Below, piece by piece: positions 6,001 through 9,000 of a stretch of 18,695 bases of DNA (positions within the stretch are counted from its first letter, which is position 1; every line of letters begins with the position of its first letter). Source of the stretch: a virus (lineage: Duplodnaviria; Heunggongvirae; Uroviricota; Caudoviricetes); the IMG/VR virus record IMGVR_UViG_2778261593_000006, positions 1 through 18,695 of that record; one strand, given 5' to 3'. Made by a program: the position numbers.

Positions 6001-9000
6001 TTGCCGGTAATTTTATCCAGCATGACTTCCTGAGTATGGAAAGTGATCGTGCGACGAAAGAACAGCTCCAGAAACAGCGCACGAAATTTCACTTTCTGCT
6101 CGGTGTACCCGAGTAACTGACGCGTGGTAAATAACCCCATAATTTATTTTCCTTCAGAAACACAAACGGGCCGCATCGCGACCCGTTTTTCAGTTAATCA
6201 CTTCACCATCAGGCGTGGCTGATGGCACTTCCCACAAATGCGTTGGCTTTTTTCACCGCATCCACCGAACCAGGCCAGACCAGCGACTCAGTGGCAAACG
6301 TACCGCTTTTGTAATACGTCAGCGTGGGTTCTGTTCCGGCAAGCGCCAGAGCCAGCACCCCCACAGCCGTTCCGGCTTTCTGACCATCCCAGACAACCAG
6401 TTTTCCGGTGGCGTCATCCACCATCAGTGGCGTCAGTGCAGGTGTGGCGGCACTGATACCACTGGTGGCTGTTGCGGTATGCGCCGGATCGCTTCCGGCA
6501 AAAATGCGCACATCTGCACGCTTTTCCGTGGTGGTTTTAATCATTTTTTCAGTCTCCTGATTTATCTGAATTCCGGATATCGCTTACGGCATACTCATCA
6601 GCAGGTCTTCCTCCCCGCGCCCGGCAGTTCCGCCACCGGAAACCGCACTGGCAGCATGCTGTGCCATAAAGCGATCAAAAAGTGTTTCCTGTGACGGTTG
6701 CGATGCCGCCGGCGCGGCTGCCAGCAGCGTTTTCGCCTGCGCCACCGTCATTCCTGGCTGTTCTGTCAGTGCCTGTGCAAGTTGCTCGCGCCCTTTCGCC
6801 TCCGGCAGCGCCATAATCTGATCACCGACACTTGCAGAACCCGCAACCGGTGCCGCCGCCAGTAACGTTTTGGCCTGATCAACGGTCATTCCCGGCTGTT
6901 CAGCCAGCGCCTGCGCGAGTTGTTCACGCCCTTTTGCTTCCGGTAACGCCATAATCTGATCGCCTGTGCCTGCAGCACCGGCAGCAGGGGCTGCCGCCAG
7001 AAACGCTTTCGCCTGCTCCACCGTCATCCCCGGTTGACCTGCCAGCATCTGTGCCAGTTGCTCACGCCCCTTTGCTTCCGGCAGCCCCATAATCTGATCA
7101 CCTGTATTTGCTACACTGGCAGCAGGCACAGCAGCCAGGAACGCTTTCGCCTGCTCTACCGTCATTCCAGGCTGACCTGCCAGCATTTGCGCCAGTTGCT
7201 CGCGCCCTTTCGCCTCCTGACAATTCAGGATCCCCATCACGCGCTGATTTTCCTGGGCCACCGCTTCAGCAACGGTGAGATTTTTAACAGTCATTGCATT
7301 CTCCTTCGTAACAGAGTCATTCAGTGCAGAAACCATCACTTCAACGGCATCTGCAGCATTAATCAGTTGATCAGCCAGACCTGCATCAATGCCTGCCTGA
7401 CCGTCATAAACGGCAGCCTCGGTATTCATCACCGCCTCTGAACTCAGCCCCGTATAAAGCGCCACCTTGTCGACAAACATCCGGCGGGCCTCATCAATAC
7501 GGCGCTGAAAATCTGCACGCACACCTGCCGGCAATGCCTGAATACTGTTGCCATCAACCTTGTGCTGCCCGGAGTAAATCAGCGTGATGTCCACCCCTTC
7601 CTGTGCCAGTTGTTTCTCGTAACTGGCGTGCGCCATCATCACGCCAATCGAACCAATTTTTGCCGTCTGCGTGACCAGCCGACGGGTACAGGCTGCCGCC
7701 AGCAACATGGCGGCTGAACAGGCCATGTCATTACACAGCGCCCACACGGGCTTCTGTTCCCGCAGACGGTAAATCATGTCAGCGCAGTCAAACGCCCCGG
7801 CAGCCTGACCGCCCGGGCTGTCGATATCCAGCAAAATGCCGCGCACATCCGGATCATTCACCGCCATCTGAAGGCGGGCCGTCAGGCCGTCATAGCCAGT
7901 CATGCCGGAGTAAGGCCGCAGGGTACCCAGTTTATGCACCAGCGTGCCGCTCACCGGCAGAATGGCGATGCCATTCTTCACCTGGTAACTCTTTGTCGGA
8001 CGCTGACCGCCCGCCATATAGTCAGTCACAGCCAGTTGCATACCATCAGCATCAAGCTGAACAGCCTGCTGAGGAACAGCAAGGCTGCCGGCTCCCATCT
8101 CTTTACCCAGCGCGCAAAAGAAAACCCGCGCATAGGCGGGTTCCAGTAAAAGCGGTTCATTAAATGCCATGGCGGCAATATGCGATAAATTACGACGCAT
8201 CGACTTTTTCTCCCGTTGTCTGTCGGATCTGCTGCTGAAACGTGTCCTTTATCCAGATGGGGCGGGGAAGACCCGCTGCCTGTCGCTCCTGGCTTTCACG
8301 CAGTTGCTGGCGGAAAATCTCCTGATAGTCATCGCCCATCAGGGCCAGCTCTTTCTCGTACGTGCTTAAACCACCTTCAATACGCATCACCGCTTCCTGC
8401 ACTTCCTTAAGGCCATCAATCGCCATGCGACCGGCACCAATCCACTCGGCACGACACCATCCGGAACGGGCCTCCCAGAATGAAAAACGGGATTTCGGCG
8501 GGCGGATCACACCGCGAATAAGAGCTTCCTCCAGCCAGCAGGCAAACATCTGTGATGCCAGCCGGCTGGCCACAAATTTTCGTTTGCCCATAAAATACCG
8601 CCACGACTCATTGGCGGATGCCCTGGCACTGGAATAACTGACCTGTGAATAATCACGGGAAAGCTGTTCATAGGACACCCCCAGTCCGGCAGCGATGTAA
8701 CGTAACAGCGCCTTTTCCAGTTCAGAGAAACCATTATCTGCATTCTGCGCTGTCTGCAGATTCAGTGAATCCCCCGGATAAAGATGCGGAATACGGACCC
8801 CGCCCAGCTTTACCGTATTGGTGGCGTAATAACGCGCGTAGCCTTTCATGATGGTGTTCAGGGGATTTTTACCGCCATCTCCCACCCCGGCGATATATTC
8901 AAATGCTTTTTCCGAATCCAGCGTGGATTCAATCGTCGCGGCATACATCGCCCGCACCACCGCCGACTGCAGTTGCGTGGCCTGCAGCGTGTCGAGCATC

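Follow-up and report, generated by a model that had tools for sequence, protein, structure and literature searches.

Why does a prophage head gene carry the same protein domain four times in succession when its counterpart in phage lambda carries it only once? The question is raised by an 18,695-nt stretch of DNA from a virus of the Caudoviricetes (IMG/VR record IMGVR_UViG_2778261593_000006, positions 1 to 18,695; hereafter the window), in which the gene for the head maturation protease and its nested scaffolding protein, related to lambda C and Nu3, contains a tandem array of 138-bp units. Comparison with relatives shows that the extra units arose through in-frame tandem duplication, and that in-register unequal recombination between units, or replication slippage, continues to reshape the array and has given alleles of two to five units and possibly of one. 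As a whole, the locus is probably best explained as a remodelled tandem array of Nu3 domains whose units serve as multivalent protein-binding modules.

The sole array that Tandem Repeats Finder detected in the window spans 6711-7217 (period 138, 3.7 copies, 79% matches, 0% indels, score 559), and a repeat search of the window returned 237-nt blocks at spacings of 138 and 138 nt. A period of 138 nt amounts to 46 codons and thus preserves the reading frame. With the motif EAKGREQLAQ (aa 329, 375, 421 and 467) as anchor, four units were delimited on the minus strand: unit 1 (7103-7240, aa 321-366), unit 2 (6965-7102, aa 367-412), unit 3 (6827-6964, aa 413-458) and unit 4 (6689-6826, aa 459-504). 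An earlier, sequence-only reading had described four near-identical in-frame copies at 6686-7230. Their number and, to within ~10 nt, their position are borne out, but the copies are far from near-identical: pairwise nucleotide identity between the four units is 64-77%, and amino acid identity over 46 aa is 61-85% (68-95% over a 37-aa core). The longest in-register exact run between any two of them is 8-24 nt, the maximum being that of units 1 and 4.

The same reading had assigned the array to the C-terminal segment, equivalent to Nu3, of a gpC-like protein, an assignment supported by the domain matches, lambda similarity and portal-C-D-E synteny of the gene. The gene (6584-8200, minus strand), recognized from the list of open reading frames (ORFs), its translation, Pfam and PHROG, encodes a fusion of protease and scaffold of 538 aa plus stop. 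Its S49 serine-protease domain, placed by Pfam coordinates and by alignment to lambda C, lies at aa 146-290 (7331-7765, minus strand; Peptidase_S49, PF01343, 2.9e-33, 115.5 bits against a cut-off of 24.9), and the protein also matches PHROG 53, "head maturation protease" (5.9e-217). Lambda C is 55% identical to it over aa 3-359, a region that reaches through unit 1. The serine motif C-S-A is kept (...MACSAAM... in the window, aligned with ...MNCSAGQ... in lambda); Ser166 of lambda (in ...NCSAG...) is the catalytic nucleophile. The C-terminal part matches PHROG 8399, "head scaffolding protein" (4e-51), in four stretches. Two lambda BLASTP segments (aa 362-399 and 364-435) also match the 538-aa protein, showing conservation of both the Nu3 domain and the tail that follows it, and the single unit and tail of lambda align separately to unit 4 and its tail. 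This conserved C-terminal tail (6587-6688, minus strand; aa 505-538, ETLFDRFMAQ...EDLLMSMP) was aligned to those of lambda (TALDRLM...DLLNTPV) and phage 21. The gene order is terminase, portal, C, D, E and FI, according to Pfam matches of the neighboring ORFs (GpA, Phage_portal_2, HDPD, Phage_cap_E and Packaging_FI). In complete E. coli genomes, copies of this otherwise ordinary lambdoid head gene are annotated as "S49 family peptidase".

Within the fusion gene, an internal ATG (7292-7294) opens a nested in-frame ORF (6584-7294, minus strand) for a Nu3-like scaffolding protein of 236 aa (N terminus MTVKNLTV..., PHROG 8399). A Shine-Dalgarno sequence read from the DNA, AAGGAG (7301-7306, minus strand), is located 6 nt upstream. 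Both elements are at the position homologous to the start and ribosome-binding site annotated for phage 21 gene 6, and a Met is retained at the internal start in relatives. On these grounds, the gene very probably gives two products with a common C terminus, namely the 538-aa protease and the 236-aa Nu3-like scaffold, each of which would carry the four units and the 34-aa tail.

To place the unit in a wider family, a unit profile was compared with 1.84 billion representative proteins, yielding 423 matches at E ≤ 0.001. Sixty full-length proteins (≥380 aa) were among the best 150 matches; 56 of these contain exactly one unit, one contains two and one contains three. This single unit sits a median of 46 aa from the C terminus. 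Because most full-length members thus carry exactly one copy near the C terminus, the unit is the conserved domain of the Nu3-type scaffold. By its distribution, the multiplied unit is a derived and uncommon state, observed mainly in enterobacterial prophages. A scan of species-representative genomes with the unit alignment found four loci. Bradyrhizobium and Afipia also have stand-alone proteins (160-230 aa; P0085, P0089-P0099, P0103, P0109) that contain the unit twice and have an unrelated C-terminal part (...SRGMK..); hence, the domain and its duplication reach the alphaproteobacteria.

Repetition of this domain has a precedent. Phage 21 is the closest isolated phage (77% nucleotide identity across the terminase-to-capsid region), and its gp5/gp6 (M81255, OL657228) resemble the window genes in their nested protease and scaffold genes, internal ribosome-binding site and tandem in-frame units, as well as in the kind of tail (...MLMAMP in phage 21, ...LLMSMP in the window). 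Phage 21 gp6 has three units in 200 aa, whereas the window scaffold has four in 236 aa. In M81255, gene 6 carries three repeat_region features ("Tri1 box", "Tri box" and "Tri3 box", noted as "function unknown; putative"), and these coincide with the gp6 units. As the three boxes are annotated in that record, the repeated Nu3 domain is prior knowledge more than 30 years old. A phage 21-type repeated scaffold has at least two tandem in-frame Nu3 units, and the window has four: its scaffold is a further member, with one more unit, of this known type. Three units were found in all of the best 80 loci of an IMG/VR scan with phage 21 gp6. The four-unit allele was found in none of the isolated phages of the phage collection, and neither the four-unit form, nor copy-number polymorphism, nor a function of the unit was found described in the searchable literature, from which the original phage 21 paper was absent. 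The new element is therefore the documented natural polymorphism of two to five units, a modest variation on a known gene.

Lambda offers the single-unit comparison. Its gpC and gpNu3 share with the window the S49 domain, the C-S-A motif, a nested scaffold with a shared C terminus, one unit plus tail and the portal-C-D-E order. Nu3 of lambda (~131 aa, counted from the alignment) differs in having a single unit, which follows a longer non-conserved segment; the suggestion that such repeats are foreign to lambda C/Nu3 was thus correct. The gpC homologs of Gifsy-1-type and other Salmonella and E. coli prophages likewise have tandem units of the same domain, three in number, and differ from the window in unit number and tail (...GEDKS and others), with only 45-60% identity over the scaffold part. 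Among the window units, only unit 1 has a clear ortholog in phage 21, namely Tri1, and it is also orthologous to the one Nu3 domain of lambda: its core is 78% identical to phage 21 unit 1 and 62% identical to the lambda unit. The cores of units 2-4 are 81-95% identical to one another, closer than to the Salmonella units or the first and last phage 21 units with which they were compared. That units 2-4 resemble one another most suggests a separate duplication or concerted evolution in the window clade.

The window clade is present in ~106 of 5,426 complete E. coli genomes. In 55 of 60 sampled rows, the span around the array measures 1091-1102 bp (1101 bp in the window) at 87-99.8% identity, equivalent to four units. 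Other lengths also occur: in E. coli STEC005 the protein is 584 aa long and has five units, eight more complete genomes of Shiga toxin-producing E. coli (STEC) have the same 1200-bp span as STEC005 (five units by alignment span), and the complete E. coli genome PapRG-04-4 encodes a 492-aa protein with three. Among prophage contigs of the window clade in IMG/VR, four units are found in alleles of 538-541 aa (42 contigs) and in a 535-aa allele with a 9-bp linker deletion (one contig, L046), five in an allele of 584 aa (one contig), three in alleles of 492 aa (three contigs) and two in alleles of 446 aa (three contigs, at least one of them from Cronobacter). An exact-sequence look-up found the window protein on 34 contigs, the five-unit allele on 15 and one three-unit allele on 11, and a related protein cluster holds Cronobacter proteins of 446 and 492 aa and a Salmonella protein of 538 aa. 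Scaffold length thus varies between isolates, as had been suggested from the sequence, and unit number always changes by exact multiples of 138 bp, in register (alleles of 446, 492, 538 and 584 aa).

Individual alleles illustrate how the array changes. The three-unit allele L035 and the five-unit allele L081 (complete genome) are 99.7% identical outside a 276-bp indel, and the repeat region is without mismatch. Window unit 3 is 98% identical at the nucleotide level to their penultimate unit and unit 4 is 99% identical to their last unit, while unit 2 is missing from L035 and has two units in its place in L081. Unit 1 of L037 is a chimera of units 1 and 2. An apparent one-unit allele of the window clade was found on a 757-bp ENA metagenome contig (P0027), with a unit 1/unit 4 junction inside the EAKGREQLAQ block; this could be a genuine contraction or a chimeric short-read contig. 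One sub-lineage (L024, L032, L040 and L043; two to five units, with internal units 100% identical) had no complete-genome match above 93% identity, and its copy numbers could reflect assembly collapse. The expectation that such repeats are prone to slippage or recombination therefore holds for the array as a family, which is being remodelled, but less so for the diverged allele of the window: as the longest run shared between its units is only 8-24 nt, this allele should be relatively stable, which fits with four units being the modal state in close relatives.

Smaller differences were also observed, among them minor in-frame length changes in the linkers. In L046 (3001-4605), the linker that follows unit 2 is shorter by 9 bp (3 aa), and the span in OkiPb E. 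coli genomes is ~10 bp shorter. Mismatches between L046 and the window are dense at the start of the nested ORF (gene nt 877-939, window ~7262-7324; MSQTNVSIIEA in L046, MTVKNLTVAEA in the window), while the genes are otherwise 96% identical; this patch suggests a point of mosaic exchange at the protease/scaffold boundary. Many database copies are labeled "partial" and end in or just after unit 1 (P0084, P0081, P0033 and others); for example, P0084 (354 aa, 2,623 member sequences) ends in ...QARAILAA. The repeat region seems to be a systematic breakpoint of draft assemblies.

The divergence between units also records how they have been selected. Across the paralogous 31-codon cores of the four units, synonymous differences (pS) are 0.42-0.72, near saturation, nonsynonymous differences (pN) are 0.01-0.13 and omega is 0.01-0.23, showing that the core of every unit has been kept by strong purifying selection. 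Constrained cores combined with near-saturated synonymous sites mark each unit as a copy of long standing whose protein sequence has been preserved in its own right. Constraint is much weaker on the first helix and the linker than on the core, in which EAKGRE...L.A..PGMT...A..LAAAP is near-invariant in each unit.

Structure prediction indicates what is being conserved. An AlphaFold2 model of the 236-aa scaffold part, built from a 35-sequence alignment (mean predicted local distance difference test score [pLDDT] 79.7), resolves every unit into three short helices; pLDDT is ~85-93 for most units and falls at the linkers, which are made of Ala, Gly, Pro and Ser. A model of a single unit has the same three helices. 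Each unit is thus laid out as a three-helix mini-domain of ~40 aa followed by a linker of ~7 aa. The predicted helices are only 5-16 residues long and are broken by Pro or Gly in every unit, which argues against a coiled coil; the coiled-coil check proposed with the sequence-only reading pointed to three-helix mini-domains instead. The predicted template modelling score of 0.34 points to units that do not pack against one another in a fixed way, like beads on a string. The tail is modelled as one helix (residues 202-213 of the Nu3 part), with pLDDT <50 beyond residue 219. The near-invariant EAKGRE segment is placed between helices 1 and 2 and is a plausible interaction face. A sequence search of the PDB with the scaffold part gave nothing meaningful (top match SelB, E 0.84), and a Foldseek search of the 236-aa model against the PDB gave no significant fold match (best E 3.2). 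We also considered protease cleavage in the linkers, as the lambda portal is cut between ...REYA and GYHGGG and units 2-4 each start with Gly, but this resemblance is too weak as evidence.

Phage P22 gp8 has a C-terminal helix-turn-helix domain that binds the coat protein; it is present as one module, and gp8 is not fused to a protease. In function, it offers an analogy for the possible role of a single unit, as a small helical module near the scaffold C terminus that could dock onto the capsid protein, although the window units had no sequence match or significant fold match to the gp8 C-terminal domain. The tandem three-helix IgG-binding domains of staphylococcal protein A are a further system for comparison. 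According to a published account (PMC3224144), lambda Nu3 interacts with E, with C and with itself, and is required for portal incorporation. Its reported self-association differs from the situation in the window, in which multivalency could be built into one chain.

Taken together, we consider it probable that the units are protein-binding modules. Each would fold independently and bind protein, and with several of them strung along the chain both scaffold and protease would become multivalent. Candidate partners are the major capsid protein, the portal and further scaffold molecules, and the units may tether scaffold and protease in the assembling procapsid until they are degraded by the protease. 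Such a function would have to tolerate a range of unit numbers. Several points weigh against this explanation. Binding to the capsid could instead reside in the conserved C-terminal tail. One three-unit gene and one four-unit gene both adjoin the capsid protein accession WP_000522659.1, and the three- and five-unit alleles L035 and L081 are nearly identical otherwise; for these two reasons, the extra units may be largely redundant.

The redundancy suggested by those observations is the most serious alternative, although we regard it as doubtful. One unit would suffice, as in lambda, and the extras would be passengers that are gained and lost by recombination with no effect on assembly. Beyond the shared capsid accession and the 99.7% identity of alleles with three and five units, one unit is enough for most of the family. 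Passenger copies are difficult to reconcile, however, with the strong constraint on all four cores despite near-saturated synonymous sites, which indicates that each copy was long kept functional, with the dominance of four units among relatives at 87-99.8% nucleotide identity, or with the fixation of three units in the best 80 phage 21-type loci.

It is unlikely, at the other extreme, that unit number itself is adaptively tuned. The units would then bind capsid or portal, and alleles of one to five units would set valency and nucleation efficiency, or else the variation would help to evade a host defence that senses this protein. If so, the synonymous divergence within the four-unit allele would itself be selected, stabilizing the array against recombination. 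Also unlikely is a spacer or ruler, in which the array would mainly fix how far the protease domain (or the scaffold N terminus) lies from the capsid-binding tail, or would set procapsid size. The flexible linkers, a model without a fixed arrangement between units and a tail conserved from lambda to the window gene are compatible with this, but a spacer would not need the near-invariant core in every unit. Determination of capsid size is not supported by either capsid gene or contig sizes: the capsid protein has the same length and belongs to the same family as that of lambda (342 aa, Phage_cap_E), and the longest IMG/VR contigs with four-unit genes (~40-47 kb) do not exceed lambda (48.5 kb) or the three-unit phage 21 (42.9 kb).

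It is very improbable that the conservation stems from the other strand or from an element acting as DNA or RNA (for instance, an antisense gene or regulatory sites) rather than from the protein repeat. Plus-strand ORFs (7034-7441 and 6215-6694) overlap the repeat region, and the phage 21 record has pattern-matched CII sites within the scaffold gene. Nevertheless, differences between units fall mostly at third codon positions in the minus frame, and the antisense open frames vary in extent between relatives, so that an antisense ORF was rejected. CII-type sites were likewise rejected, as the pattern TTGYN6TTGY does not occur in the repeats (two occurrences in the window, both elsewhere, versus four expected by chance). 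Finally, the window array is almost certainly not an assembly artefact. Assemblies often miscount identical tandem repeats, and this may have affected the L024/L032/L040/L043 sub-lineage, which occurs at ≥95% identity only on IMG/VR contigs and in no complete genome. The window units, however, differ at 23-36% of nucleotide positions and are too diverged to collapse. Records of eight complete E. coli genomes match the span of 1101 bp around the array at ≥99% identity (those listed at 1100-1101 bp), which answers the concern over copy number raised from the sequence alone, and 34 contigs carry the exact protein.

The genes around the array are those of a lambda/21-type head module, all on the minus strand. 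The lambda-family portal gene (8190-9761; Phage_portal_2, 4.9e-96) overlaps the start of the protease gene by 11 nt at its end (8190-8200), as also in phage 21 and lambda. On the other side are homologs of the head decoration protein D (6209-6544; HDPD, 2.1e-22) and of the major capsid protein E (5112-6140; Phage_cap_E, 2.8e-65), the latter being a likely partner of the scaffold. Downstream of this module, the segment at 557-3336 (minus strand) contains homologs of Baseplate_J (1140-2054) and gpW/gp25 (2029-2385). As these baseplate genes are of the contractile-tail type rather than lambda tail genes, the virion module is mosaic. A Shiga toxin operon is also present (16314-17555, minus strand), encoding an A subunit of 321 aa (Pfam RIP, 2.8e-29) and a B subunit of 87 aa (SLT_beta, 2.1e-43). 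Given that the nearest genomes include enterotoxigenic E. coli (ETEC) and STEC strains from pigs, the prophage is probably of the Stx2e-converting type.

Two practical points concern this gene. The length of the protease/scaffold gene is an unsafe criterion for its intactness, and database copies are often truncated in the repeat region, probably at the ends of draft-assembly contigs. The contacts of lambda-type scaffolds with the shell are still poorly defined, and here near-identical head modules form a natural allelic series with two, three, four or five (possibly one) copies of the sole conserved Nu3 domain. Across this series the adjacent capsid protein is identical or nearly so, and the series is, as such, a ready-made test of scaffold valency.

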